Source of the DNA: Nitrososphaerales archaeon | GTDB taxonomy: Archaea; Thermoproteota; Nitrososphaeria; Nitrososphaerales; UBA213 | Assembly (NCBI GenBank): GCA_046759465.1 | Contig: JBHICH010000002.1 | Location: forward strand, 7,468 to 71,467 | Direction: 5' to 3' | Length of the DNA: 64,000 nucleotides | Shown: one piece after another, positions 33,715-59,485 of the stretch | How positions within the stretch are numbered: the stretch's first letter is position 1 | How the letters are laid out: each line of letters opens with the position of its first letter | Notes under the pieces: model-generated | Databases searched by the model: none | The model's input: only the letters and a program-made list of their open reading frames with translations | What the model was told of the DNA's origin: nothing | Position numbers and translations under genes: made by a program

Positions 33715-35814
33715 CTAGGGCTGTTCTAATTCCACTTTTCCCTTTTTACGTCGCAATATGGGTGCATATTTTACTTTTTTCTTGATCGCTGGTTGCACCG
33801 TCTTCTCCAGTTCGTATTGTTCCACGGTAAACTGTCGGGCAGTCCCGAAAGGCCTGAATGGTCTGCCTCGTCCATGAAAGAACTTTGAGAAGTATTCAAC
33901 GTAAATCAATCGTGCTCCTTGAATACCAGGCTCGAAAATCCCTATGATATTGTTGAAGAAATGACCCACCAGCAGTATCACGGCTCCGGTGATAATTAAC
34001 AACTCACTTTTGTGCAAGGCTTTCAGGAATATATAATCAATCAGATGAGCAAATATCACCGAGGCTACAAGTATCCCCACAATTCGCGTATAGGAGAGAA
34101 TATGGCTGATGATTGATGGAAGCTCCATGAGAGCTCGAACTCCCTCACCAAGAAACATCAAACCTATGCCTGCAAAAATCATGCCGAAGTAGCTACCAGC
34201 AACAAGATCTTTCATGGGATTAATGGTTTGGCCACCTATCAGTGCCAAGCCCAATTGAGCGATTCCCCAGGCAAATACGAGCCATCCGATCTTTCCCAAC
34301 ATTCCTCGTTTCTCCTTCTGCCAGTAATGATTCACAATGCCCAAAACTAACCCAAAAGATACCAGAATTAGTCCGATATACCCGCTGATAAGGAGGAGCT
34401 TACGTAGCCCGAAGCTGCTTATGGGATCAAAAAAGGTGCCATTGGAGGGAAGGTTTAGGCCAAATTGGGCATTTAGTAATCCAAATAGATAACCATTAAG
34501 GTGGAATCCGAAGTACAGATTGAAGAGAAAGCCTAAACCAATTGCAACGATGCAACCAGGAATCATAGCCTTGGCCAACTTGACCATCCTTGGTGGAGAG
34601 AGTATCAGCTTGGCAAATTTGATCAACTTCCTTGGCATGATTGTTTTCCCACGCTTTCCTCCCTCCACACGTTGTATCACCCATAGCGAGCCAACAAGTA
34701 TTACTAAACCATAGCCTACGTCTCCAAGCATCATTCCGAAGAATATAGGGAAGACAATAGCGAAGATCAGAGTAGGGTCGAACTCGTTAGAAGATGGAAG
34801 GGAATAGAATCTGATGAACGATTCAAAGAGCCTGAATTTCTTGGGATTCGTAAGGAGTGTTGGAGGAAGTTCTTCACTTTCCAGCTCGTAGACTTCGGTG
34901 ATTCCTGGAGCATATCTATCTAGGGTCTTCTTAAGCTGCTCAAGCTTAGGGACTGGCACCCATCCTTCCAAGGCGAACACATCGTGGGTAACACCAAGAT
35001 TAGCGGCCACTTCTAGCTTTCTACTTTCGATCGCTAGTTGTTCCTCGACAACTAGTATAGTAGCGAAGTGTTGCTTCGAGATCTCCTTCAGTTGCTGATC
35101 TATCCCCTGGAGTGTCTGCGTAAGTTCATTTCGTTTCTTCTTTAGCTGCTCCACAAGCTCCGTTGGCTTGCCGTAAAGCCGAGGCACAGGTTCCAGTTTA
35201 GCTCCGTAGGTCTGGATCACTGTAGCAAGCGCATGGGAAGGAAATTCCGGTAAAACAACAAGAACGAAGCGGGTGATATCCTTATCTTGTTGAAAATAAA
35301 GAACCATATCTTGGAAGTCTACTTGCAGAGCTTCTTTAAAGGCTGCAAATTTTTCAGATTCAACCCGTCCAAAGAATGAATGAGCCAACCTCAACTCAAG
35401 GAGGCTCAGGTCTTCGGGGAAGAACGAAAACTCCTTCACTAGTCGTAGGTTTTCGTCGATCTCCTTCAGCTTGGTAAGCAGATCTTCTTTCTGTCTTTCA
35501 AGGGAAGCAACCTTTTCGTCGATAGTAATGGATTGGGCAGTCTCTATTAGCTCATCCAAGGATGTAAAGCGACAGCACTCTGAAACCAACTGAGCAGGAA
35601 GAACACTCTTTAGAGCCCTAATTCTGAGCAGCTGGTCTGAAACCTGTCTATTCAGATCGTCGTCCCGCTCATTTCGAAGCATCCCAGCAACGCTTTTCGA
35701 TAAGGGTTCTAGATGCACAACGCCCAAGTCATGAAGAATAGATACAACGTTTTGTCTGTTCTCCCGCAAACCCAGAACAGCTATCTGCTTCATCGCAACA
35801 GGCTTTAACATCAA
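33715..35814 (-). CDS. atpI: A/V-type ATPase subunit I (membrane stator a-subunit)
   Basis: 699 aa. N-terminal coiled-coil cytosolic half plus a C-terminal polytopic membrane half. Last gene of the operon. Confidence 0.9.
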   Translation of the reverse strand: MMLKPVAMKQIAVLGLRENRQNVVSILHDLGVVHLEPLSKSVAGMLRNERDDDLNRQVSDQLLRIRALKSVLPAQLVSECCRFTSLDELIETAQSITIDEKVASLERQKEDLLTKLKEIDENLRLVKEFSFFPEDLSLLELRLAHSFFGRVESEKFAAFKEALQVDFQDMVLYFQQDKDITRFVLVVLPEFPSHALATVIQTYGAKLEPVPRLYGKPTELVEQLKKKRNELTQTLQGIDQQLKEISKQHFATILVVEEQLAIESRKLEVAANLGVTHDVFALEGWVPVPKLEQLKKTLDRYAPGITEVYELESEELPPTLLTNPKKFRLFESFIRFYSLPSSNEFDPTLIFAIVFPIFFGMMLGDVGYGLVILVGSLWVIQRVEGGKRGKTIMPRKLIKFAKLILSPPRMVKLAKAMIPGCIVAIGLGFLFNLYFGFHLNGYLFGLLNAQFGLNLPSNGTFFDPISSFGLRKLLLISGYIGLILVSFGLVLGIVNHYWQKEKRGMLGKIGWLVFAWGIAQLGLALIGGQTINPMKDLVAGSYFGMIFAGIGLMFLGEGVRALMELPSIISHILSYTRIVGILVASVIFAHLIDYIFLKALHKSELLIITGAVILLVGHFFNNIIGIFEPGIQGARLIYVEYFSKFFHGRGRPFRPFGTARQFTVEQYELEKTVQPAIKKKVKYAPILRRKKGKVELEQP

Positions 35815-35821
35815 TACACAC

Positions 35822-36154
35822 CTAAAGATGGTTTAACAATATCTCTTCTATAATAGTACGCACGATTTTTGCATCCACCGGTTTAGAAGATATCCCAGCC
35901 GCTTTTTTCTTTGCATCATCCAAGATCTTCCTTTCTTCCTTCTGAGCCTCCTGTCTGGCTTGTTCAACTTTCATTTCCACCATGTGCTCACCTTCCTTTC
36001 GCGCCGCTTCTACCTCTGATTCCATGGCAACCTGTAGATTTTGAACTTCTTCTTGAACTACCTTCCTGCGGGCCTCAACCTCCTTCTCTACCGTCTCCTC
36101 CGCCTCTTTAATTTGCTTCAGCGATTTCACGTATTTTTCTTGTGGTTCCATCAT
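35822..36154 (-). CDS. atpH: A/V-type ATPase subunit H (peripheral stalk, G-like)
   Basis: 110-aa Glu/Lys/Ala-rich helical protein located between atpD and atpI. Confidence 0.6.
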   Translation of the reverse strand: MMEPQEKYVKSLKQIKEAEETVEKEVEARRKVVQEEVQNLQVAMESEVEAARKEGEHMVEMKVEQARQEAQKEERKILDDAKKKAAGISSKPVDAKIVRTIIEEILLNHL

Positions 36155-36274
36155 CCTTAATCTCCTAAGACAGATCTTCGTATAAACAATAGTACAATAG
36201 GGGCAACTGCAATGTTGAGAATTTTGAATATGCTCTTTATCAAGTAAAACTTTCTCTGCGGGGGATCCACGAAC

Positions 36275-36925
36275 TTATGCCTTACGAGCATCCTTCCGCT
36301 CTCCCATATTTCGCTTTACAGTCTTCAGCATGATGAATGTATCTCTTTCCATCTCATCGAACCTGAACTTGATATACTTCACAGCTGCCTCCAACCTAGG
36401 TATTAGCACGTTCTCAATAGCATTGGATCGGCGTTTCGTTTTTTCGATCTCATAAAGAAGCTTCCTCAGAGCAGTCTCTTTTTCTGCCACATCCAATACT
36501 ATTTGATGGATTTGCCGGAATGTCTTGATCGCCTCGTTAATCGAGGTGGGAAGCTCCAAGAACATCTCTGGATAGTCAGCCATGCCTTCCCCACCTTCTA
36601 ATTGAGGAATTCGAACACCCATCACATTCTTTGGCAGTATCTGAAGCTTACGAAGCTTGGGGATCTTCATCGCCTCGTTTTCCAGTCTCAGTGCTCCTGC
36701 CAGCATCTCAGCCATCCTTATACTCTCATAGCCCTGCAACAATCTAGTATGAAGCCCACCTCGGAGAGTTGCTGCTTTCTTACTTATAGCAAAGAATTCT
36801 AGAATCAAGGCTTGACGTTTCAGTTTAAGAAGGTTAAGCCCCTTTGTGGCCATCACAATTCTGCGCTTAGTGCGAATGTATTCCATACGTGTCGGGCGAA
36901 TGTCGATGGAGACTGGCATGTCCAA
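36275..36925 (-). CDS. atpD: A/V-type ATPase subunit D
   Basis: 'IRPTRMEYIRTKRRIVMATKGLNLLKLKRQAL' is the typical subunit D N-terminus. Confidence 0.9.
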   Translation of the reverse strand: MDMPVSIDIRPTRMEYIRTKRRIVMATKGLNLLKLKRQALILEFFAISKKAATLRGGLHTRLLQGYESIRMAEMLAGALRLENEAMKIPKLRKLQILPKNVMGVRIPQLEGGEGMADYPEMFLELPTSINEAIKTFRQIHQIVLDVAEKETALRKLLYEIEKTKRRSNAIENVLIPRLEAAVKYIKFRFDEMERDTFIMLKTVKRNMGERKDARKA

Positions 36926-36930
36926 CCACG

Positions 36931-38334
36931 CTACCTTACTTCCATAGGCTCAGCGACTCCCTGCTTCTTTCTGTATTTGGCTATGAACTCGGGTCTGATT
37001 CGCTTCATCTCTGATTCCGAGAGCTCATCGAGGACCTCCCACCCAATATCAAGAGTCTGTTCTATAGACCGATCCTCGTCCAATGCTTGGTTTACGAACT
37101 TGCCCTCAAAGATGGAAGCTATTCTCAGGAACTTTCTATCGATTTCACTAAGTGCCTCTTCACCAACGATGGCCGAGAGAGCCCTAGAGTCCTTGCCTTG
37201 AGCGTATGATGCGTAGAGCTGATCCGCCAGACCTCTATGTTCCTCTCTTGTTTGTCCCCTACCTATACCTCGATTCATAAGACGAGAAAGGCTGGGCAAA
37301 ACATCAACAGGCGGATAGATGTCGGACCTATGCAGTTCTCTGCTCATTACCAGTTGTCCTTCTGTGATGTAACCAGTCAGATCAGGAATAGGATGGGTGA
37401 TATCATCAGCTGGCATCGTGAGGATGGGGATCTGAGTAATCGAGCCTTTCCTACCCTTTATCCTACCAGCGCGTTCATAAATAGTTGCCAAGTCTGTGTA
37501 CATATAGCCTGGATAACCACGCCTTCCAGGCACTTCTTCACGAGCTGCGGAAATCTCTCTTAGGGCTTCGCAGTAATTGGTCATATCCGTCAATATAACA
37601 AGAACATGCATTTCGCGTTCATATGCTAGAAATTCAGCAGTTGTCAAAGCCATTCTTGGAGTAAGAATACGTTCCATCGATGGATCGGATGATAGGTTAA
37701 GGAATAGAACCGTTCTCCCCAGGGCCCCTGTTTCCTCAAACTGCCTTATGAAGAAGTTTGCCTCCTCGCTTGTGATTCCCATTGCAGCGAAAACAACAGC
37801 AAAGCTCTCCGAGGTTCCAAGAACCTTGGCTTGCCTCGCAATCTGAGCTGCAAAGAGATTATGTGGAAGACCTGATGCCGAGAATATTGGAAGCTTCTGA
37901 CCCCTTACCAAGGTATTCATTCCATCAACGTTAGACATTCCTGTCTGTATGAACTCCGAAGGCTCTTCCCTTGAGTATGGATTTATCCCTGAACCAACCA
38001 AGTCATGCTTCTCCTTAGATATGATCTTAGGTCCAGCATCTCTGGGGTTACCCAGACCATCGAAGACCCTTCCTAGCATCTCATCCGAAACCGCCAGTCG
38101 AGCGGTCTCGCCAAGGAACCTTACTGAGGTTCCAGCAATGCTCATCCCCAAAGTCGGCCCAAAGACTTGGACCACTGCTAATCCTTGTCTCGAATCTAGA
38201 ACCTGACCTTGGCGCCTCTCCCCACTAGGAAGCTTTATTTCTACCATCTCACCAAAAGCTGCATTCTTCACACCCTCTACAAAAACCAGGGGACCTGCGA
38301 TATTCGATATAGTCTTGTAGGCTATCGATGACAT
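36931..38334 (-). CDS. atpB: A/V-type ATPase subunit B
   Basis: 467 aa, non-catalytic B-subunit pattern '[19 protein letters not shown]'. Confidence 0.95.
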
Positions 38335-40109
38335 CAGGCAGCCACCTCCTGTAGTAGCTTGCCAAGCTGCTCTTCCATATCCTTCCTGATCAGATTAACC
38401 AACTCTTCCGTCTCCTCTTCACGAGTCCACTTGATTCTAGATATCTTGTTTTTTACCTCCAACGCACTAACTTGTGACGCCTGAGCACCCTGCTTTATTG
38501 CCTGCATCTCCTTCCTACCGAACTCAAGAATTGTGGAGAGCATCAGATACTGTTTTTTGATCGATGTATACGTGTCTACCTCGTCATAAGCACTCTGTTG
38601 CAAGTAGTCCTCTCTTATCGAGCGAGCAGTATCTAGAATCCCCTTCTGGGGTTCTGGTAACGCATCAAATCCTACAAGCTGAACAATCTCTTGGAGTTCA
38701 GATTCCCTCTGCAGTATCTCCAAAGCTTCCTTACGTAGATCTATCCAGTCCTTGGCAACACCCTTCCTGTACCAATCACTCATCTCGTCCACGTAAAGGG
38801 AATAGCTTGTCAGCCAGTTGATGGAAGGAAAGTGTCTCCTAGAAGCCAAACTCGCATCAAGTGCCCAAAATACCCTTGTCACTCTGAGAGTGTTCTGCGA
38901 TACAGGCTCAGAAAAGTCCCCGCCGGGAGGTGAGACTGCTCCAACTACGGTCACGGAGCCTATGCGTTCCTCTGGCGAAATGACCACAACTTTGCCTCCC
39001 CTCTCATAAAATTCGGCCAGTCTTCGCCCCAGATAGGCTGGATATCCTTCCTCGCCAGGCATCTCTTCCATCCTTCCAGAGATCTCCCTCAGTGCTTCAG
39101 CCCACCTAGAGGTGCTGTCGGCCATCAGTGCCACATCAAATCCCATGTCCCGATAGTATTCGGCCATTGTTATTCCCGTATAGATACTCGCCTCCCGGGC
39201 CGCAACTGGCATATTAGAAGTATTAGCGATAAGAATTGTACGCTCCATCAACGGACGTTTTGACTTGGGGTCTTCGAGCTCTGGAAATGTGGCAAGAACC
39301 TCAGCCATTTCATTTCCTCTTTCGCCACATCCTACATATACGATCACGCTGCTATCGGCCCACTTCGAAAGCTGCTGCTGAGTGACCGTCTTGCCACTGC
39401 CAAAGGGACCTGGGATCGCGGCATTACCACCTTTAGCAACCGGAAAGAACGTGTCAAGGATACGTTGTCCAGTTACAAGTGGAGCTTCTGGCGGAAGTTT
39501 TCGCAAAACTGGTCGAGCAGTACGAACCCGCCACCGACTAGACAAACCAACATCCACCTTTCCATTAGCATTTTGGATTGTTGCCACAGTCTCCTTCACC
39601 GTAAACTGCCCTTCCCTTATATCTACAAGCTGACCCTTAACAGCAAAGGGAACCATGATCCTGTGCCTAATGAGAGGAGTTTCCTGAACCTCCCCCAGAA
39701 CTTCTCCAGGGGAGACATCTTCACCCTTCTTCTTAACTGGAATGAATTCCCATCTCTTCTCCTCATTGAGAGCAGCGATAGCATATCCTCGGCTGATGAA
39801 GTCCCCACCTTGCTTTCTCAAAACATCAAGCGGTCTTTGAATCCCATCATAGATTGAGGTAAGAAGTCCAGGTCCCAATTCGAGAGAGAGGGCTTGCTTG
39901 GTATTGACAACCCTATCTCCCGGTCTCAAACCTGTCGTATCTTCATATACCTGAATACTTGCTCTACTCCCTTCCAGGCGGATTATCTCTCCTACGAGAC
40001 CAACTTCGCCGATCCGCACTACGTCGTACATCTGCGCTCCCTCGAGACCACTGGCGATTACCACCGGCCCTGAGATTCTATTTACTATCGAGTCCATTAT
40101 TTCATTCAC
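38334..40109 (-). CDS. atpA: A/V-type ATPase catalytic subunit A
   Basis: Walker A 'GPFGSGKTV'. 591 aa and contiguous, with no intein-sized insertion. Confidence 0.95.
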
Positions 40110-40464
40110 CCATTTTGATATCTACTCCGAGAACCCGCCTCGCCAGATCTGATATAGATTCTTCCTTTATACCTTCCCGAAGTGAAGGCATAAAGATCAC
40201 CAGTGGCTCTATTGATGCCTCAACTTTAGCCCTGAAGGCTGGGGAGAGTGCATCGCGGACGGATTGGCTCGCCACGATAAGACCGAAGTCATTTGAATAA
40301 AAAAGTTTCTGCATTACCTGAACGGCTTCTTCCCCTGCAGCAATATAAGTATCGTCTATCCCCAAAAGACGATACCCTATCACCAGCTCCCGGTCTCCCA
40401 CTACAGCTATCCTTCCAGTTCCAATGGTTTTGGGTTTGGCAGGCATTTTCTCACCCAAATACAA
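40102..40464 (-). CDS. atpF: A/V-type ATPase subunit F
   Basis: 'IAVVGDRELVIGYRLLGI'. 120 aa. Confidence 0.85.
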   Translation of the reverse strand: MYLGEKMPAKPKTIGTGRIAVVGDRELVIGYRLLGIDDTYIAAGEEAVQVMQKLFYSNDFGLIVASQSVRDALSPAFRAKVEASIEPLVIFMPSLREGIKEESISDLARRVLGVDIKMGE

Positions 40465-41518
40465 GTATGGAGCTTATGCGCTCCACTGGCAGATTATAAT
40501 GCTTTCCATAAACTATCTTACGAATATTCTCCCGCTCTAGCTCTGCCAACATAACGAAATAAAATATAGTTCCAATAGAAAGAGGAAGGGTCTTCAACCT
40601 CTTGAAGTACATCTCACTTATAACTTTGTCAACAGCTGCCTCAAAGTCAGTTAACCTTCTGGTCTTCTTATACTGCTCGAATCCTTCTCCCAACTTGTAA
40701 AAGGTGTCAATATTTCTAGCAAGTTCCTCTACGTTCTTAGCCATGTACATTTCTCCCAATTGGCCTGTAGGAATGTTTCCGCCTTCGATAAGGTGTTGAA
40801 TGACTACTTCCTTTTCTAGGTTAGTCTCTTTAGCCTTCAAAAGGCTAAGAATATTCTTCTTGTCTATTTCGGCCCTAATCAGCTCCCTAATGACAGCCTC
40901 ATCGCCTTGAAAGAACTTGAGAGCCTCAAGAAGTGTAGAGTAATAGTAACCTTGTAAGGCCGCCATCATTGGACCAAGATCAGCAGTTTTTTGATACTGT
41001 CCCAAGTACTGCATCAATACAGTCCCGTAGCCATACCGAACCAATTGGTTAACTACGGCTTCGACAGAAGGTTGGGATAGCAGGATCTTGATCTCGTCAT
41101 GGGGAATATTTCCACCTGAAACTCCAGCAGGTAAGTTACGATTAGACACCAAAAAATGTTCCGTCTCTGTAATGGTCTTTCCCAGACTCTTTGACGAGAG
41201 AACAAGCTCAATGTTTTGAATGTCCCACTTGGCCAAGTAGGCCCTGATTGCAGATTTCCCGCTAAAAGGTGAAGCCTCCATAGCGATCCTGTTGACTCCC
41301 ACCAGATGACGATTGAGGGCTACCTCAACAAGCTCTGGGGGTTTGTAGAGTGATGCAGCCTTCTCGATTTCAGGGCCATACCAAGTGGACGCCAACTGCT
41401 TAACAATTTCACTGACATCTCTAGCTCGAAGAAGATTCTGCATGTAGTCCTTAGAGAGAAAGTTTAGGGAGAGCGCCTGCAATCTACCAAAGGAGGCAGA
41501 ATATGGAGATGTAGGCAC
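40451..41518 (-). CDS. atpC: A/V-type ATPase subunit C (d-like)
   Basis: 355-aa all-helical protein located between atpE and atpF. Confidence 0.85.
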   Translation of the reverse strand: MPTSPYSASFGRLQALSLNFLSKDYMQNLLRARDVSEIVKQLASTWYGPEIEKAASLYKPPELVEVALNRHLVGVNRIAMEASPFSGKSAIRAYLAKWDIQNIELVLSSKSLGKTITETEHFLVSNRNLPAGVSGGNIPHDEIKILLSQPSVEAVVNQLVRYGYGTVLMQYLGQYQKTADLGPMMAALQGYYYSTLLEALKFFQGDEAVIRELIRAEIDKKNILSLLKAKETNLEKEVVIQHLIEGGNIPTGQLGEMYMAKNVEELARNIDTFYKLGEGFEQYKKTRRLTDFEAAVDKVISEMYFKRLKTLPLSIGTIFYFVMLAELERENIRKIVYGKHYNLPVERISSILVFG

Positions 41519-41521
41519 TGG

Positions 41522-42079
41522 CTATCCCTTCCCAAGAAGATTAGCTCGAAGCTCTTCTTCATGCGTTCGGAGAAGTTCTTCAAAAGTGAAATTGAGCTCC
41601 AAAGTCCTTTGCTTGTTCTCCACTATTATTCCTCCTAGAGTCTGAATAGGATTGTTGCTTACAGTGACACCGATACCTTTCAGAAGGTGGCGATCCTCTT
41701 GTCTGCAGTGAACCAACACATCTTGACCCAGCCTCTTCTTGGAGACATTAATCATTTCTTCGAGCGTCCTTTTGTACTGGGTATTTTTAGTATAATTCTT
41801 GAGATCCTGTCTGATCACACCGAAGGCAGAATCCAAGTTTGCATCAATAGCCTGAAAGATTATTCGTTTTGCCTGCAGACGTGCTGCCTCTACGATCCTA
41901 GTCGCCTCCCTTTCTGATTTAAGGTGAGCCTGCCTCTTATAACGTTCATTTAACTCCTGAACCCTTGCATTCCTGTCTCGAAGCAAAGCCTCCTTCCTTT
42001 CAGCTAATTCCCTATCCAGTGCTTCTAACTCTCTTCTCTTGCGATTCTCGATCTCTCTAAGGAAGGTCTCCGAGCTCAA
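41522..42079 (-). CDS. atpE: A/V-type ATPase subunit E
   Basis: 185 aa. N-terminal long charged helix plus a C-terminal globular domain. Confidence 0.85.
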   Translation of the reverse strand: MSSETFLREIENRKRRELEALDRELAERKEALLRDRNARVQELNERYKRQAHLKSEREATRIVEAARLQAKRIIFQAIDANLDSAFGVIRQDLKNYTKNTQYKRTLEEMINVSKKRLGQDVLVHCRQEDRHLLKGIGVTVSNNPIQTLGGIIVENKQRTLELNFTFEELLRTHEEELRANLLGKG

Positions 42080-44273: not shown

Positions 44274-46940
44274 TTAACCAGATACGCAGCTGCTCCAGCC
44301 ACACTCAACACAGCTGCTGCATCCTTCTATGTATATGACTTTTCCATTACACAATGGACACGGTTCTATCTCTGTTTGTGCTTGTGGTTTCATCACTCTT
44401 TGCACATACTCTTGACCGTTCTTCCTTTCTGCCACCTTGATCACTTTCTCTACTTCTTTGTAGATAAACTCATCCTTGATATTGTTCTTTATGTAATCTA
44501 CAACGTAATCACTTGGCAGAATATCGAATCTTTTCTCTTTCGAATCACTTGTTATATGCAATACCTGCTGGTGTCTTGATCCGTCCCTAAATACAGTGAC
44601 TCCCTTTAGGCCTAGCTCGTGCGAAAGTAAGTATGAGCACTTGACATCATCTGCAGTTACATCATTCGGCATGTTTATCGTCTTTGCAATTGCATTGCTT
44701 ACCCACCGCTGCCAAACAGCTTGGGCCATCAAGTGATCTGCCCAATGAACATCGATCGCAGTAACGAATACTCTCTGTATCCATTCTGGTATGCCATCTA
44801 AAGCTCTTATTGAGCCATAATTCTGTGATATTTTCTCCAGCAATTCATCGCTGTAAAGTCCTTGCACCTTGAGCATATCTTCGAACACCTTGTCTGTGTA
44901 GAAAAATCTGCCTACTGTAACTCTCTTTTCATAAACCAATGCAAACATAGGCTCCACTCCGTTTGATGTATCTGCAATCATAGAAAGTGTTCCAGTTGGA
45001 GCAACTGTAGTTGTTTGCGAGTGCCTCATTCCAAAGCGCATTATCTTGTCTATCAAAGAGTCCCAGTCATACGAGTGCTGGCTCTTTGGAACTTCGTAAT
45101 AACCAGCTATTGGTATCTTTCCATACACATATTCGGATTCGTTGAACAACGGAAATGCACCTCTGTTCCTAGCAATCTGAACGCTCTCCTCGATGCTATA
45201 GTATGACAACGCTTCTGCAAGCTTTGACATAAACTCGTATCCTTCTTTTGAGTTGTATGGTATCTTCAGTATGTAAAATAGATCTGCGAGTCCCATTATC
45301 CCCAAACCAATTCTTCTTGTTAATTTGCTTGCAACATCGATTTCTGGAACGGGATACTTGTTCGAATCAATAATGTTGTCAAGGAATCTTGTTGTAAGTC
45401 TTATTACTTGCTCATACCTCTGCCAGTCAAATTCAAATTCTCCATCAGCTCTTCGCTTGACAAAGTTTGCCAAATTAATCGATCCAAGGTTGCATGATTC
45501 ATATGGATACAGACTTTGCTCTCCACACGGATTTGTTGCTCTGATAAATCCTTGGGCTCTCTTCATGACATTGTACCTGTTCATGATGTCAAAGAACAGA
45601 ACGCCGGGCTCTGCGCTCTGCCATGCACTTAATGCAATAAGATCGATCAACTGGTTTGCATCGATGAAATTTACGATCTGCCCAGTTCTCGGGTTCTTTA
45701 ATGGATACTTACTCTTGTTCTTTATAGCGTCCCACAAGTCTTCCCAGATACCAACGCTTACATTGAAGTTTTCAAACACACCTGGCTTTGTTTTTGCAGT
45801 GACAAACTTTTCGATGTCTGGATGCCAAGCCTCTAGTATTCCCATGTTGGCTCCTCTCCTCTTCCCGCCTTGCTTCACAACTTCTGTTACAGTATCTATG
45901 ATCTGCATGAATGATGTTGGTCCCGACGCAACGCCAGATGTTGATGCAACAATGTCACCTTCAGGTCTTAGGTTGGAGTAGTTGATACCAACACCTCCTC
46001 CAGATTTGAAGATCAGCGCAGCATCTGTCGATGACTTCATTATGCTGTACATATCATCTCTCATATCTAGCACAAAGCATGCAGACAGTTGTCCAAGCCT
46101 TGCGCCAGCATTCATAATAGTTGGTGAATTTGGTAGAAAGTCCCTGTCTACCATTAGACTATTGTATTCCTCTACTCTTTTTGCATAATCATCGAACTTG
46201 CCGTCTTCAAACATTCTTAGCAATTCGCTTACGCTTACCTTCATCTGACCCTGCCCTGATAGATCCTTGTAGATCATAAGCAGAGATTCAATATGCCATT
46301 TGTTCAGAGTGTATGGTCCGATCTTGAACCTCTTATCCAGTTCATTTAATCTGCCTAGATAGTCGTTAAGCTCTTCGATACTCTGCTTTACACCTGCCTT
46401 AAGACCAAATACCCTCTGGTCCCTCATTACATCTGGCAAGGTTACCAGAATTGCTACGCGTTCAAATACTTGCTTTGGACTCTCAACTATCCTGCCATTT
46501 TCATCTCTTAGCAGGTATCTCGATGCAAGCACACGCAAGGAGTTTACATCGAAGGCCTTGTCTACCTCATCTAGAGAGGTTCGCTCAAGGACCTTCATCT
46601 TCTCCTCCCTTACCTTTCTCCTTTCGTGCCTGTAAAGGATGTATGCCTTTGCAGTTTCCGATAGACCTTCTTCGATCAAGACGGATTCTACGATGTCCTG
46701 AACATCTTCAACACTTGGCACATCGGCCTCGTCATAGCCCTGCTGAACAAGCCTTTGCACAGTTTTGCTTGTTAGCCTATCCGCCAACGGATAGTCAGCT
46801 CTATTGGTTGCAACAAGTGCTTTGTAAATAGCGTTTGATATCTTCGATGCTTTAAAGTCGACAACCCTGCCATCCCTCTTTCTTATCTTGTTTATTACAG
46901 TAGATACGTCTGATCTGAAAGTATCAGTAGTTCCCGCCAT
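44274..46940 (-). CDS. nrdJ: Class II (adenosylcobalamin-dependent) ribonucleotide reductase with N-terminal ATP-cone
   Basis: ATP-cone 'IRKRDGRVVDFKASKI...'. 'TNPCGEQSLYPYESCNLGSINL'. C-terminal CxxC...CxxC tail. 888 aa with no intein-sized insertion. Confidence 0.9.
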   Translation of the reverse strand: MAGTTDTFRSDVSTVINKIRKRDGRVVDFKASKISNAIYKALVATNRADYPLADRLTSKTVQRLVQQGYDEADVPSVEDVQDIVESVLIEEGLSETAKAYILYRHERRKVREEKMKVLERTSLDEVDKAFDVNSLRVLASRYLLRDENGRIVESPKQVFERVAILVTLPDVMRDQRVFGLKAGVKQSIEELNDYLGRLNELDKRFKIGPYTLNKWHIESLLMIYKDLSGQGQMKVSVSELLRMFEDGKFDDYAKRVEEYNSLMVDRDFLPNSPTIMNAGARLGQLSACFVLDMRDDMYSIMKSSTDAALIFKSGGGVGINYSNLRPEGDIVASTSGVASGPTSFMQIIDTVTEVVKQGGKRRGANMGILEAWHPDIEKFVTAKTKPGVFENFNVSVGIWEDLWDAIKNKSKYPLKNPRTGQIVNFIDANQLIDLIALSAWQSAEPGVLFFDIMNRYNVMKRAQGFIRATNPCGEQSLYPYESCNLGSINLANFVKRRADGEFEFDWQRYEQVIRLTTRFLDNIIDSNKYPVPEIDVASKLTRRIGLGIMGLADLFYILKIPYNSKEGYEFMSKLAEALSYYSIEESVQIARNRGAFPLFNESEYVYGKIPIAGYYEVPKSQHSYDWDSLIDKIMRFGMRHSQTTTVAPTGTLSMIADTSNGVEPMFALVYEKRVTVGRFFYTDKVFEDMLKVQGLYSDELLEKISQNYGSIRALDGIPEWIQRVFVTAIDVHWADHLMAQAVWQRWVSNAIAKTINMPNDVTADDVKCSYLLSHELGLKGVTVFRDGSRHQQVLHITSDSKEKRFDILPSDYVVDYIKNNIKDEFIYKEVEKVIKVAERKNGQEYVQRVMKPQAQTEIEPCPLCNGKVIYIEGCSSCVECGWSSCVSG

Positions 46941-47046
46941 CCCCTCTTACTTAGTTATGATCAGCTTCTTAAGGCTTACTAAATTTTTATGAACTCATAG
47001 CGGTCAAAAAAGTTTGCTTCCACATCTATTGACAAAAAGATGAATG

Positions 47047-49152
47047 TTAGGCATATCCTTGCAGGATATGTGGAGATCTGCATGAGCCACACTTGTCTAT
47101 AACTTCTAAGCTCTTCTGACCGCAGTTGCCGCAAACAAAAACCTTCATTCTTGCTCTAAAGAATGTTAGCATATCTGCCGCACTTTCTATTGCTGCCTTG
47201 ACATCGGTGTTGTTCATTGTATTGTTTACATCCAGAGTTACAGAAAGTCCACCATTAAGCAACTTTTCCATAGCATTGCACTCCTTTATTATCGGAGAAT
47301 CCTTCTTAATCTCTATCATATCGGCAGCAGGTATGACCATTCCTTGCGAATATGCATTATTGCTCGTTTGTAGCAAGATCTTGCCATACCTTCCTGTATC
47401 TAGAGCAGCAAATCTGGTAGCGCTATCATCAATTATCATCGCTATACCAACATCGTCTCCAGTCTGTTTCCCCTTTTCTATTGCAACATCAACTGATGTC
47501 CTGATTACTTTTTGGACTACATCCAAGCAACTATTTGTGTCGTCGTAGCCGAGTATGTTTGCAACAGATTCGTGTAAACCAACCAAGTTTACAACCATGT
47601 TTGCACTTCCTCTCTGCATGAACTGAGTGCTGTCTGCAAGTGTAGGAATAAGGCCCTTCCTTGTTAGATCGGTTATTGTCTTCTTCCTAATAGAAAGTGC
47701 GGTTATTGCGGGCTTTATCAGAAGCGCAAGCCTAGCTCTGAAGTATGTTTCGTCCTTGTTTGATTCATAGGCAAGTCTGGGCAGGTTTATTGCTAGTGAT
47801 TGCAATAACATCACAGTGTTGGCGCTTTGTCCATTACCCAAGCTCCTTGATACACCCATGGCACTCCTTACCTGATTTGGATTGCCCAGCAATGTTATTG
47901 CACCTCCAGCACGCACGATGTTGGAGATCTTGTCAGCATAATCATTTACAGCACCGTTGCTGTATGTCAAGACCAGTCCTATCCTGGGCATTGGGGTTGC
48001 ATGCACATACGTCTCATACCCCTTCAGCACAGCATCGACATACTTCTTTTCCGAACCATCTAGATTGACGTTCAAGGACATGTTTGGAGATGTTGGTGAA
48101 TGCGATGGAGCGCTGGAACCTATTATGAGAGCCTTCGCAAACTTGTTCGCCAACGAGCTATCGCTTCCACACCTTTGAATAAGCGGTATTATCTCATCTA
48201 CAAAGACTTCGGTTGAAGCTTCCCTGCTCAGCAGACTATTGAGCAGTGCAAGACAAGAGCAGAAATCATCTACGCTCTTGATAGAGCTTATTCTTGACAC
48301 GTTCAGGAACTTGCCCTTTAGGTTTATTCCTTCTTCAGCAAGCTCGTTTATATTGATAAATATGGAATCGGGTATAAGACCCCAGGTTCCAGGATTTGAT
48401 ATGTGTATATCGCCAGCTAAATACGAATCGGCTATATCCTTTGGAAGCGTGTTGAAGACAAGGTATTCGGAGAAAACTGTTTGAGCTGTCTTTGCTAGCA
48501 CACTTTCAATTCCGTTTTTGACCTCATCTACGCTGTTCATCATCTGAGCGATATCAAAGACTGGCATACCTAGTCTAGCCAATTTATGTCTATACTCTTC
48601 ATGGCCATGTTCAATCAAAACTGAATTTACCATTTCCCGTATCAAGGGAGCGGTTAGGTATGCAGTTTGGAACTTGTAGATCTTGTTTTCAACCTCCTCT
48701 GTTATCTTCTGCGCAAGTTCCAATGGTACACTTGCTTCCCTAACCAGAGACTGGATTATTTTGTGGGAGTTGAACTCCTCTATCATTTGATTTGAAGTTC
48801 TAACGTACATCTTTCCACTTTCAATTATAGACCGCTCCTCGATCTGCCTAGCAAGGCTTAGCACCAGTTTGCCCAAGTTTGTAATGGTGTACCTTCTTTC
48901 AGCCTTGTTCAGAGCAACAAGTGACTGCCTGAGTAACTTCCTCAAGTGGTAGGCGAACTTGCCACTCTCCTTCTTTGACTTGAACCCTGCTAGTGCCTTT
49001 AGTTCTGAATATGTTAATGGACCCTTTGAATTCAATATTCTAAGAATATCTATCCTGTTTGGGCTTGCCATCACGGAGAAGATCATCCGAACCCGCTTTG
49101 AAGCTGACTCCAGAACACCACCCTTCTTCGCTTCAACATGACTCAATTCCAT
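47047..49152 (-). CDS. Fusion protein: ArsR-type winged HTH + ATP-cone + class III RNR (NrdD)-like body + C-terminal zinc ribbon
   Basis: wHTH 'ASPNRIDILRILNSKGPLTYSELK'. ATP-cone 'MYVRTSNQMIEEFNSHKIIQSL...'. NrdD-like 'YLAGDIHISNPG' and 'AINLPRLAYES'. Ends 'CGNCG...CGSCRSPHILQGYA'. Confidence 0.7.
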   Translation of the reverse strand: MELSHVEAKKGGVLESASKRVRMIFSVMASPNRIDILRILNSKGPLTYSELKALAGFKSKKESGKFAYHLRKLLRQSLVALNKAERRYTITNLGKLVLSLARQIEERSIIESGKMYVRTSNQMIEEFNSHKIIQSLVREASVPLELAQKITEEVENKIYKFQTAYLTAPLIREMVNSVLIEHGHEEYRHKLARLGMPVFDIAQMMNSVDEVKNGIESVLAKTAQTVFSEYLVFNTLPKDIADSYLAGDIHISNPGTWGLIPDSIFININELAEEGINLKGKFLNVSRISSIKSVDDFCSCLALLNSLLSREASTEVFVDEIIPLIQRCGSDSSLANKFAKALIIGSSAPSHSPTSPNMSLNVNLDGSEKKYVDAVLKGYETYVHATPMPRIGLVLTYSNGAVNDYADKISNIVRAGGAITLLGNPNQVRSAMGVSRSLGNGQSANTVMLLQSLAINLPRLAYESNKDETYFRARLALLIKPAITALSIRKKTITDLTRKGLIPTLADSTQFMQRGSANMVVNLVGLHESVANILGYDDTNSCLDVVQKVIRTSVDVAIEKGKQTGDDVGIAMIIDDSATRFAALDTGRYGKILLQTSNNAYSQGMVIPAADMIEIKKDSPIIKECNAMEKLLNGGLSVTLDVNNTMNNTDVKAAIESAADMLTFFRARMKVFVCGNCGQKSLEVIDKCGSCRSPHILQGYA

Positions 49153-49268
49153 TTAACCTCTCTACTAATTTTGTTTGATTAAAAGAACCTTGTAAAATAA
49201 TATTGCCTAACTAGGATAATAATTTATTGCTTGCAAATTGCGCGGAGAGCTCCTATCTCCTTTAAATA

Positions 49269-49877
49269 CTAAGTTTCTATCGGAACTCTATCCTTTGCCT
49301 TGGTTTCTGGCAGAGTTGGGAATTTGTGCTTCAACTCGTTTTCCACAACGCTGCTGGCCTCTTCAAGTATCTGTATAGCATCATCCGTCACCTTGCTCGG
49401 ACTGGGTCCATCTGTTATATCAAGAGCGATCAGTGTATTGGAAAATGTGTCGGACATATTTACAAATGTCTCCCTTGCAGCTGGCACAACCTGTGCTAGA
49501 TCATTCTGCAATTCCTTCAAACTTGTGACTGCAGGATTTACTGCATCAAACAGCTCGTTGTAATCCTTTATAGTGCCTATTCTCACGATCAAAGTTTCAA
49601 AAACTACCTTAATATCCGATACAAGTTTCAAGACTTTCCTTATAATGACAAGTTCATTGGCAAGCATATTCGCGTGCACTTTTTCACCGCTAAATACATC
49701 AACAACGACTTGCTCCTGTAGATTCCTCTCTACACTGCCAAGCCTTGTTTCTACTGGTGCCAACTTTAGAACCTCTGCATACAGTGTGGTTCTCGCTTTA
49801 TCAATATCAAGTCTAAACTGCTCATGCCTATGCATAAGAACCAGCAGCATATGGATCGGATAGAAGGTAAAACACAT
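49269..49877 (-). CDS. cdvB: ESCRT-III/Snf7-family cell-division protein CdvB (true start probably an internal Met, e.g. 49835)
   Basis: 'LANELVIIRKVLKLVSDIKVVFETLIVRIGTIKDYNELFDAVNPAVTSLKELQ' has the helical-hairpin pattern of thaumarchaeal/crenarchaeal CdvB. Acidic C-terminal tail. Confidence 0.7.
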   Translation of the reverse strand: MCFTFYPIHMLLVLMHRHEQFRLDIDKARTTLYAEVLKLAPVETRLGSVERNLQEQVVVDVFSGEKVHANMLANELVIIRKVLKLVSDIKVVFETLIVRIGTIKDYNELFDAVNPAVTSLKELQNDLAQVVPAARETFVNMSDTFSNTLIALDITDGPSPSKVTDDAIQILEEASSVVENELKHKFPTLPETKAKDRVPIET

Positions 49878-49979: not shown

Positions 49980-50594
49980 ATGGTAAAGAAATCAAGCAAG
50001 AGGAGTAATCCATCGATGTCAATAAGTAACAAAGATGTAGTTGCTGTGCAAGTGGTAGAGAAAGCTGGTGTTAATGTCAAGAAACTTGTTGATATGCTGA
50101 TCGGGGGAGTAGGAGCAGAGTTTACAACTTACTATTATTACACTATACTAAGGATGCACTGCACCGGGCTCGAGGGCGAGGGCATAAAGGAAATTGTCGA
50201 AGATGCAAGAATTGAAGACAGGAACCATTTTGAAGCAATGACACCAAGAATATATGAGCTCGGTGGTTCGTTGCCAAGGGACATAAGAGAGTTTGCTGAT
50301 CTTTCAGCATGTCCCGATGCTTACTTGCCAAAGGACTGGACTGACATTAACGAAATTATCAAAATTCTACTCGCTGCTGAACAGTGTGCGATCAAATCCT
50401 GGGGTCAAGTTTGTGAAATGACATATGGCAAGGATCCGAGAACATATGATATTGCACAAAATATAATGCAGGAAGAAATTGAGCATGAGGCTTGGTTCCT
50501 AGAGTTACTGTATGGCAGACCATCAGCACACTTCAGAAGGAGATTCATCGGAGAATCTCCGCATGTCCATAAACAGCTACATACAACGCACTAA
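49980..50594 (+). CDS. Dps-like (DPSL) ferritin-superfamily diiron protein
   Basis: Four-helix-bundle ligand pairs 'EDRNHFE' and 'EEIEHEAWF'. 204 aa. Confidence 0.75.
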
Positions 50595-50609
50595 ACCCCT
50601 TTTTTTGAT

Positions 50610-50969
50610 ATGACCTTGGTAACTGTTTGCAAGGTTGACGATGTAAAGGACAACTCACTTGGACTTTTTAATGTTAATAGTGTTGAAATTGTTGTTGGAA
50701 AAAGGAAGGGAAAGATGTTTGCATGTGTAGCGCACTGTCCACATAAAGGTTCTTACCTGCATAAGGGCTGGTTTAATGGCGATAATCTTGTTTGTCCCTT
50801 GCATAACTACGAGTTTAATATCTCAACAGGTAAGTTAGAAAGGATGACATCATGGAAGGAAGAACACCCAACATGGATAGAGCAGGATCCTGAATGGAGA
50901 AAGTCTGGTGACTTGATACTTTATGATGTTAAGGTTCGTAATGGTTATGTCATTGTAGATTTACCATAA
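50610..50969 (+). CDS. Rieske [2Fe-2S] ferredoxin-like protein
   Basis: 'CPHKG' and 'CPLHNYEF' (CxH ... CxxH). Confidence 0.85.
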   Translation: MTLVTVCKVDDVKDNSLGLFNVNSVEIVVGKRKGKMFACVAHCPHKGSYLHKGWFNGDNLVCPLHNYEFNISTGKLERMTSWKEEHPTWIEQDPEWRKSGDLILYDVKVRNGYVIVDLP

Positions 50970-59391: not shown

Positions 59392-59485
59392 TGGTGCGGT
59401 CGCCGGGATTCGAACCCGGGTCGCGGGCTCCCTTCGTTCTAAACATGGAAGGCCAGCGTCCTAGACCAAACTAGACGACGACCGC
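59392..59485 (-). tRNA. tRNA-Gly (anticodon UCC) with 16-nt intron at the canonical 37/38 position (59430-59445) and encoded CCA
   Basis: Hand fold. Acceptor GCGGTCG/CGACCGC. D-arm GTCT/GGAC. Anticodon loop CU-UCC-AA after splicing. T-arm CCGGG-TTCGAAT-CCCGG. The bulge-helix-bulge motif has bulge CAT, helix CTTC/GAAG and bulge GGA. Confidence 0.9.

Follow-up and report, generated by a model that had tools for sequence, protein, structure and literature searches.

A winged helix-turn-helix fused to an ATP-cone and a dead NrdD-type body beside archaeal ribonucleotide reductase genes: a candidate nucleotide-responsive regulator

A four-part protein encoded upstream of nrdJ

We analysed a 64-kb stretch of DNA from a Nitrososphaerales archaeon (hereafter the window, i.e. 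the whole stretch and not any single feature in it) and concentrated on a reverse-strand gene whose product joins a winged helix-turn-helix (wHTH), an ATP-cone, a body resembling NrdD, i.e. the class III ribonucleotide reductase (RNR), and a Cys4 zinc ribbon. This gene, called regulator-like below, is located 106 bp upstream of nrdJ and on the same strand (Table 1). It belongs to a real and conserved family, apparently undescribed, that is built on a recycled RNR catalytic subunit. The class II assignment of nrdJ was obtained from profiles (TIGR02504, 733 bits; PF02867, 495 bits), and the ATP-cone of its product scored 78.5 bits; both the position of the regulator-like gene and the presence of a cone in NrdJ, noticed in an initial annotation of the same DNA, were borne out.

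Table 1. Features of the regulator-like gene, of nrdJ and of their surroundings in the window
Feature	Position	Strand	Basis
Regulator-like gene, whole: wHTH, ATP-cone, dead NrdD-fold body and Cys4 ribbon	47047..49152	-	Open reading frame (ORF) listing, domain profiles
wHTH, residues 24-104, ArsR-like HTH_20 / DUF7347	48841..49083	-	Pfam, AlphaFold2 model
ATP-cone, residues 115-190, non-canonical	48583..48810	-	Pfam, AlphaFold2 model, alignment to canonical cones
Catalytically dead body with the NrdD fold (10-stranded barrel), residues 191-665	47158..48582	-	Foldseek, TIGR02487
H250-I-S-N253, degenerate HxHD substrate-triphosphate motif	48394..48405	-	Alignment
P261-D262-S263, Ser at the Cys position conserved in all RNRs	48364..48372	-	Alignments A1 and A4
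Finger-loop-equivalent segment, residues 423-446, without Cys	47815..47886	-	Alignment
Cys4 zinc ribbon of the NrdD C-terminal type, retained	47071..47157	-	Alignment of representatives
7-residue C-tail and stop; glycyl-radical domain absent	47047..47070	-	Alignment of representatives
Regulator-nrdJ intergenic region, candidate nrdJ promoter: T-run block AAACTTTTTTGACC (47002-47015), TTAA box, GAGGGG Shine-Dalgarno sequence	46941..47046	-	
nrdJ, class II (B12-dependent) RNR with canonical ATP-cone, presumed target	44274..46940	-	Profiles
Upstream region of the regulator-like gene, B recognition element (BRE)/TATA-like promoter with block TTTTACAAGGTTCTTTTAATCA (49176-49197)	49153..49268	-	
Snf7/ESCRT-III-like ORF	49269..49877	-	Weak profile matches
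Ferritin-like gene and 119-aa ORF	49980..50969	+	PF00210 for the ferritin-like gene
Segment of higher G+C, probable A/V-type ATPase operon	33715..42079	-	Synteny
tRNA	59395..59485	-	Rfam scan

The gene starts with ATG and encodes 701 amino acids (aa); an identical protein (P0001) is present in a public Nitrososphaerales metagenome-assembled genome (MAG). The four-part order read initially from the sequence was recovered from the order of the Pfam matches and the ribbon cysteines, and the strings on which it had been based are all found in the protein (YLAGDIHISNPG at residues 244-255, AMGVSRSLG at 430-438 and AINLPRLAYES at 453-463). Within the wHTH, residues 24-98 match DUF7347 (40 bits, cutoff 27.6) and HTH_20 (32.9 bits, cutoff 27), and the AlphaFold2 model displays the corresponding topology, i.e. 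helices 31-43, 48-55 and 60-75, a wing made of strands 79-82 and 87-90, and helix 92-111. These matches and this topology are shared with the ArsR/SmtB repressors, and the nearest solved sequences are those of ArsR, SmtB and MarR; the window domain nevertheless differs from them in scoring below the metalloregulator cutoff (NF033788 of NCBIfam, 23.7 vs 55 bits) and in being fused to about 600 further residues.

The ATP-cone was identified by Pfam PF03477 over residues 115-187 (43.7 bits, cutoff 25.8), and is folded in the model into strands 116-118, 124-126 and 165-167 plus four helices. When aligned to the cones of nrdJ products and Bathyarchaeal NrdDs, it carries V117-R118-T119-S120, near-invariant, in place of the canonical KRDG, and retains C-terminally Y187-R188-H189, which aligns with the YRH of the canonical NrdJ cone. 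In canonical cones the N-terminal Lys-Arg pair of KRDG (Lys7/Arg8 in PcNrdD) provides phosphate ligands (PMC11226230). The body matches NRDD PF13597 at 76 bits (cutoff 26.2), and the ribbon that follows has the spacing C674-x2-C677-x10-C688-x2-C691, its four columns being all Cys in 32 of 33 wHTH-fused representatives. The protein ends in ...ILQGYA, a tail whose GY is not conserved, homologues ending in HVFRTQ, YLLMI or YILN. The initial annotation had seen no room here for a glycyl-radical loop, which holds, but it had placed the stop two residues after QGY where there is actually one.

As sequence searches of the PDB, whether with the complete protein or with the cone alone, returned marginal matches only, a fold search was needed. 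The AlphaFold2 model was obtained with a predicted local distance difference test (pLDDT) score of 87 and a predicted template modelling (pTM) score of 0.79. Modelling had been proposed in the initial annotation. Class III RNRs make up every one of the top 36 PDB matches returned by Foldseek (E 2.6e-19 to 3.8e-11, TM 0.5-0.66), among them the enzymes of S. thermophilus, T. maritima, P. copri and T4, and class I RNRs rank after them (E around 1e-7). In the model, the NrdD-type alpha/beta barrel fold is intact.

Loss of catalysis and distribution of the family

Residues were scored in 33 wHTH-fused representatives clustered at 50 % identity, including 16 tier-1 proteins, i.e. those of ammonia-oxidising archaea (AOA). 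Genuine enzymes served as controls in alignments A1 and A4 (P0213 and three Bathyarchaeal NrdDs, 509-521 bits with the NrdD equivalog TIGR02487), and the Cys and Gly columns were anchored to the solved P. copri NrdD, whose glycyl motif is RITGY. The controls carry RP[FY]C, QCC/MCCR, HIH[DN], ENANLQ and SR[IV]TGYY. The initial annotation had drawn attention to AMGVSRSLG, a segment without Cys where the finger-loop cysteine would be expected. That observation stands, the nearest Cys on either side being residues 328 and 542, but it is not diagnostic by itself since the active T. maritima NrdD (tmNrdD, subclass NrdDh) has Ile359 and no Cys at its finger-loop tip (PMC4493059). Residues essential in the NrdDh subclass too were therefore scored.

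At the column of the universal RNR cysteine (T4 C79, E. coli C175, tmNrdD C125; PMC4493059), genuine enzymes read RP[YF]C where the window protein reads IPDS, and none of the 33 representatives has a Cys. The SCCR/MGCR columns are occupied by R, S or A, and in none of the 16 AOA representatives do they hold a Cys; across the whole set of 33, one protein has a Cys at one of the SCCR columns and one keeps a Gly. In tmNrdD, the C329A and C330A mutants are inactive (PMC4493059). The HxHD columns, HIHD or HIHN in genuine NrdDs, hold S or T at their third position in 15 of the 16 tier-1 proteins, and the NxN flap is gone, NSVDEVKN standing where genuine NrdDs have ENANLQ; roles for the HxHD triphosphate motif, the NxN flap and Gly711 have been described for NrdD (PMC11226230). 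The glycyl-radical motif RxxGY is missing altogether: only 10 residues follow the ribbon, and 16/16 AOA representatives have gaps at the Gly columns.

The profiles point the same way: the window protein scores 64 bits with TIGR02487 against a cutoff of 326, and falls far below cutoff in all NCBIfam NrdD equivalog models. In total, it fails as an NrdD enzyme on six tested defining features. No radical-SAM CxxxCxxC motif was detected in any credible ORF of the 64 kb, i.e. no nrdG-like ORF, in agreement with the initial annotation, and no nrdG was found in the flanks (+/-8-10 kb) of related loci. Judged from its sequence, the window protein is a CATALYTICALLY dead NrdD paralogue, whose radical, redox and substrate-site residues are lost; the loss of the catalytic Cys and Gly, to be checked by alignment according to the initial annotation, extends to the whole family. 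With NrdD, and especially with the Bathyarchaeal NrdDh-like, thioredoxin/NrdH-dependent enzymes, it shares the fold, the NLPR strand motif and the Cys4 ribbon, and with the neighbouring genuine Bathyarchaeal NrdD also the unusual VRTS cone. The universal Cys, the Cys of the SCCR/MGCR motif, the radical Gly together with its domain, HxHD and the NxN flap are all missing from it, and it possesses an additional wHTH.

A word-indexed protein search yielded 4861 relatives, all of the best 120 displaying the four-part architecture, and a scan of one genome per species located relatives in at least 568 AOA genomes. The best 80 genomes belong to Nitrosopumilaceae, Nitrosotalea, Nitrosotenuis, Nitrosarchaeum, Nitrososphaera(ceae) and Nitrosomirales, and the closest among the matches listed (80 % identity) comes from a Candidatus Nitrosomirales MAG. 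As relatives span the AOA lineages, all of which keep the architecture, the wHTH-cone-NrdD fusion is a core gene of this group; the phyletic survey, like the other computational checks suggested at the outset, came out in favour of the initial annotation. Mean pairwise identity is highest in the wHTH (69 %) and the cone (63 %), falls to 44 % in the helices that come after the cone, and is lower still in the barrel (26-29 %), the ribbon (33 %) and the C-tail (12 %). Purifying selection is therefore stronger on the DNA-binding and nucleotide-binding modules than on the former enzyme body.

These proteins are annotated in their source databases as 'anaerobic ribonucleoside-triphosphate reductase' or 'ribonucleoside-triphosphate reductase (formate)' (P0001, P0015, P0016, P0051, P0273, P0278, P0289 and others). 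This is a systematic mis-annotation of dead paralogues that concerns thousands of database entries, and anaerobic synthesis of deoxyribonucleoside triphosphates (dNTPs) can consequently be wrongly inferred in AOA genomes and MAG reconstructions.

Linkage with RNR genes, a Bathyarchaeal sister form and promoter regions

Linkage was counted in 75 AOA loci with at least 1.5 kb of sequence downstream of the regulator-like gene. In 65 of them nrdJ follows directly on the same strand, so that the lack of conserved linkage, which the initial annotation had regarded as a ground against a regulator, is not what we observed. The gaps measure 93-577 bp (median near 215), leaving room for a promoter proper to nrdJ.

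An exhaustive representative search with the barrel alone further revealed a second tier of relatives, represented by 2761 proteins from Bathyarchaeia at E <= 1e-20. These proteins of 740-800 aa have wHTH, cone, barrel and ribbon as in the AOA form and end in a vestigial tail that shares homology with the glycyl-radical domain; some are truncated right at the motif. Among 81 complete metagenomic ORFs, the radical-Gly position could be scored in 74, and was occupied by Ala (45), Ser (16) or other residues, never by Gly. On four long contigs the wHTH-fused paralogue is followed by an NrdH/thioredoxin-like gene and then by genuine NrdD, pyrB (reverse strand) and pyrI, and this pyrB/pyrI-flanked slot is the one that holds nrdJ in ammonia oxidisers. 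Of 50 metagenomic loci sequenced far enough to tell, 28 have a genuine-type nrdD immediately downstream of the paralogue, and one has nrdJ there. Because the Bathyarchaeal sister form precedes nrdH-nrdD in the same slot, linkage with an RNR gene survived a change of RNR class (III to II).

Scores with TIGR02487 form a series of degeneration, from about 520 bits in genuine enzymes (509-521 for the Bathyarchaeal neighbours) to 301 in the wHTH-fused Bathyarchaeal paralogue and 64 in the ammonia-oxidiser form. The peculiar cone of the paralogue (VRTS...APLIRE...) is common to the neighbouring genuine Bathyarchaeal NrdD, which supports its origin from nrdD. The simplest history would be a tandem duplication of nrdD in the common ancestor of these Thermoproteota, followed by the gain of a wHTH and the loss of catalysis; later, the aerobic ammonia oxidisers would have replaced the class III enzyme in situ by class II, and the paralogue would have decayed further. 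The regulator would thus have stayed while the enzyme was swapped from an oxygen-sensitive to a B12-dependent one, and the locus would keep a record of the aerobic move.

Three of the genuine Bathyarchaeal NrdDs (L085:10709-12919, L087:10922-13093 and L088:10499-12598) have features of their own. Their cone-like N-terminus carries VR(T/R)(S/T) and not KRDG, the precomputed Pfam annotation calls no ATP-cone in them, and those of L085 and L087 read YQCCAY rather than SCCR. They may form an undescribed NrdD subgroup using an NrdH-like or thioredoxin-like partner.

Upstream of nrdJ, the blocks of the intergenic region are conserved within the window clade (alignment A3), and the region is a candidate nrdJ promoter. 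Upstream of the regulator-like gene, the block recorded in Table 1 is near-identical from the window clade to Nitrososphaera. In the form TTTTACAA(A/G)GT..TTTTAATCA, it varies very little between orders in which the proteins share only about 60 % identity, and its conservation exceeds the need of a generic BRE/TATA element. A related 12-13-mer, ACAA(A)GTAGYTTT, gave 30 matches in 2.6 Mb, 26 of them at regulator promoters and 2 at Nitrososphaera nrdJ promoters. As an operator shared with nrdJ it was rejected, since a position weight matrix built from regulator promoters gave 483 scattered matches vs 1 nrdJ promoter, which is not above background.

The TTGAC/GTCAA dyads were likewise discarded as a common operator: they are sporadic and occur in few loci of different clades (GTCAA-N5-TTGAC upstream of nrdJ in 3 sequences, TTGACC-N4-GGTCAA upstream of the regulator-like gene in 6). 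In Nitrososphaera only, a perfect palindrome, TTGACC-(TTTT/AAAA)-GGTCAA, sits about 100 nt upstream of the regulator start (L016, L019, L023, L063 and L077), between the stop of a Snf7-like gene and the regulator promoter; the strict form TTGAC-N3-8-GTCAA makes up 6 of the 14 matches across all loci. The palindrome could be an operator or a terminator hairpin.

A different element, GGTGT-N8-TTGA with an exact 8-nt spacer, is found in 32-33 of 67 nrdJ upstream regions at -63 to -101 (with an outlier at -463 in L078), including those of L013, L017, L021, L027, L034, L040 and L069. It has 58 matches in 1.3 Mb, 33 of which fall in nrdJ upstream regions, against a shuffle mean of 0.3, and we consider it a real footprint and a candidate cis-element at Nitrosopumilaceae nrdJ genes. 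Just 5' of GGTGT and overlapping it, dyads are present in L013, L021, L034, L036 and L017 (CACCATT...AATGGTG; TATGAA...TTCATA), whose pairing is conserved and whose sequence differs. These changes look compensatory and would fit an RNA hairpin better than a protein site; the hairpin could lie in the 3' untranslated region of the regulator-like gene. A scan with Rfam revealed no riboswitch or other RNA near nrdJ.

A candidate RNR regulator, its alternatives and its neighbours

We propose, with somewhat better than even confidence, that the protein is a nucleotide-responsive transcription factor for the RNR gene of the cell, i.e. nrdJ in ammonia oxidisers and nrdH-nrdD in Bathyarchaeia; its DNA binding, ligand, target and direction (repression or activation) are all part of what we infer. 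According to this proposal, the NrdD-type body would dimerise and place two wHTH domains on promoter DNA, the binding of ATP or dATP to the cone would change the oligomeric state or the exposure of the wHTH, and RNR transcription would follow the (d)NTP pool. The models for it are NrdR, in which the response of the cone to ATP/dATP alters the oligomeric state (PMC9110341), and the ATP/dATP response of cone-bearing NrdD (PMC11226230).

Like the window protein, NrdR, the RNR-specific repressor of bacteria, has an ATP-cone joined to a DNA-binding module and a Cys4 ribbon, and is encoded beside RNR genes; by analogy, the window protein would be expected to couple RNR transcription to ATP/dATP. In NrdR, however, an N-terminal Zn ribbon is directly followed by the cone, for a total of about 150-170 aa, whereas the window protein is made of wHTH, cone, a 475-aa dead barrel and the C-terminal NrdD ribbon, would contact DNA through the wHTH and not the ribbon, has a VRTS and not a KRDG cone, and comes with no NrdR-box-like shared operator that we could find. 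The operator boxes of NrdR, by comparison, are conserved at RNR promoters and frequently also at the promoter of its own gene. The NrdR model is also absent from the NCBIfam matches of the window protein. The best reading of this comparison is that the protein would be a functional analogue of NrdR and not a homologue. The initial annotation had advanced such a dead NrdD-derived analogue of NrdR: the dead NrdD origin, the fold, the conservation and the nrdJ linkage were upheld, but no operator shared between the two genes came to light. NrdR is rare in archaea (PMC9110341).

Several observations weigh against a regulator of RNR genes. The wHTH resembles the solved ArsR, SmtB and MarR sequences only weakly (E 0.19-0.6), and, as the cone has VRTS and is without the canonical Lys-Arg pair, the sequence does not assure that it binds ATP or dATP. 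Adjacency to nrdJ is lost in 10 of the 75 AOA loci, all from one Nitrososphaeraceae subclade, and adjacency to any RNR gene is missing in 21 of the 50 Bathyarchaeal loci. The neighbourhood is broadly syntenic, with thiolase-OB upstream and pyrB/pyrI downstream, so that the nrdJ linkage may in part reflect an inherited order of genes and not a functional coupling. As to operators, GGTGT-N8-TTGA had to be rejected as a shared one, being limited to Nitrosopumilaceae, found in 0/83 regulator upstream regions and absent near the window nrdJ; an unbiased 7-mer enrichment over both promoter sets in both archaeal classes returned only generic AT-rich BRE/TATA-like words, and none of four approaches revealed an operator shared by regulator and RNR promoters or common to all clades.

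Some of these points would be accounted for if the protein were a DNA-binding regulator with another main regulon, such as the Snf7-like gene, pyrB/pyrI or a replication/cell-cycle programme, its adjacency to RNR genes being a relic of tandem duplication. The Snf7-like neighbour is conserved in the window clade and in Nitrososphaeraceae even where nrdJ is not adjacent, the slot is flanked by pyrB/pyrI in both archaeal classes, loci without an adjacent RNR gene exist in both, and no operator is common with the nrdJ promoter. We nevertheless hold this to be unlikely: Nitrosopumilaceae lack the Snf7-like neighbour, no neighbour other than the RNR gene has a function that fits the ancestry and the ATP-cone of the protein, and the slot is still occupied by an RNR gene after the change of class, an outcome that the inertia of a tandem duplication alone does not predict. 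A role at the protein level, as a modulator of active RNR or replication proteins or as a dNTP buffer or sensor in which the wHTH is an interaction or nucleic-acid-tethering module, appears equally doubtful. Pseudoenzyme paralogues often regulate their active relatives, barrel and ribbon are kept under selection, and the Bathyarchaeal form coexists with a genuine NrdD, making heterodimers conceivable. The AOA locus, however, offers no NrdD partner, the neighbour being the class II NrdJ; the wHTH, above the cutoffs of two Pfam DNA-binding domains, is the most conserved domain; and the evolutionary rate of the body is about 2.5 times that of the N-terminal domains, which a conserved interface would not lead one to expect.

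That the protein is after all a genuine anaerobic RNR, relying on unusual radical chemistry or on a radical domain encoded elsewhere, is very improbable. Its database names, its NRDD match above the Pfam cutoff and the active tmNrdD, also without a finger-tip Cys, are in line with an enzyme. This reading was rejected on residues other than the finger tip, i.e. on the Ser at the universal Cys, the SCCR/MGCR columns, the loss of HxHD and of the NxN flap, and the deleted Gly-radical domain; to these are added the absence of any Cys between residues 328 and 542, the equivalog scores far below cutoff, the mere 106 bp left before nrdJ and the lack of a radical-SAM ORF in the window. The hosts, moreover, are aerobic ammonia oxidisers and carry nrdJ.

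A transcription factor for RNR genes thus remains our preferred reading. A broader version of it, improbable as it stands, would make this two-class family of RNR-derived factors (Nitrososphaeria and Bathyarchaeia) the missing archaeal counterpart of NrdR, reading the nucleotide pool through the cone and perhaps through remnants of the NrdD allosteric sites, and controlling RNR, the Snf7-like gene and pyrBI, i.e. a master S-phase/dNTP regulator of AOA.

In trigger enzymes such as PutA, BirA and NadR, a metabolite-recognising enzyme scaffold is combined with a DNA-binding domain that controls the cognate pathway. These mostly retain catalysis, whereas the window protein has lost it, and its scaffold is that of an RNR catalytic subunit, for whose recycling into a regulator we know of no precedent; if our proposal is correct, it would be the first such case known to us. 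In the searchable full-text literature, most subscription journals lying outside it, neither a wHTH/ATP-cone/NrdD fusion nor a dead NrdD in these archaea was found described; the initial annotation, too, was aware of no characterised system of this kind. For the control of RNR expression in archaea, the family provides a concrete, testable candidate in ammonia oxidisers, which drive global nitrification, and in Bathyarchaeia, both groups being abundant and ecologically important.

Among the neighbours in the window, the Snf7/ESCRT-III-like ORF (202 aa) lies directly upstream of the regulator-like gene. It was recognised from a weak Ist1 match (E 0.074) and from a weak Snf7 Pfam match in the orthologue of Nitrososphaeraceae. 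Both the window clade and Nitrososphaeraceae conserve it on the upstream side of the regulator-like gene, even in the subclade without an adjacent nrdJ; in Nitrosopumilaceae, which are without it, thiolase-OB directly precedes the regulator-like gene. A link between dNTP supply and cell division is conceivable.

Further upstream, two ORFs are found between the Snf7-like gene and the OB/thiolase pair. One, of 204 aa, is ferritin-like (PF00210, 80.9 bits); the other, of 119 aa, contains a CxH...CxxH pattern that resembles a Rieske motif on visual inspection only. In tBLASTn searches, L008 alone had both of them in the equivalent position and L005 had just the ferritin-like gene there, which gives the pair the look of a clade-specific insertion. 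On the other side of nrdJ, a segment with a G+C content of 0.45-0.49, as compared with about 0.40, contains same-strand ORFs of 699, 216, 467, 591, 355 and 185 aa, and probably corresponds, by synteny with L001 and L088, to an A/V-type ATPase operon. Finally, the sole match of the Rfam scan in the window was a tRNA; it covers 91 nt where the model has 71 positions, which is suggestive of an archaeal tRNA with an intron.

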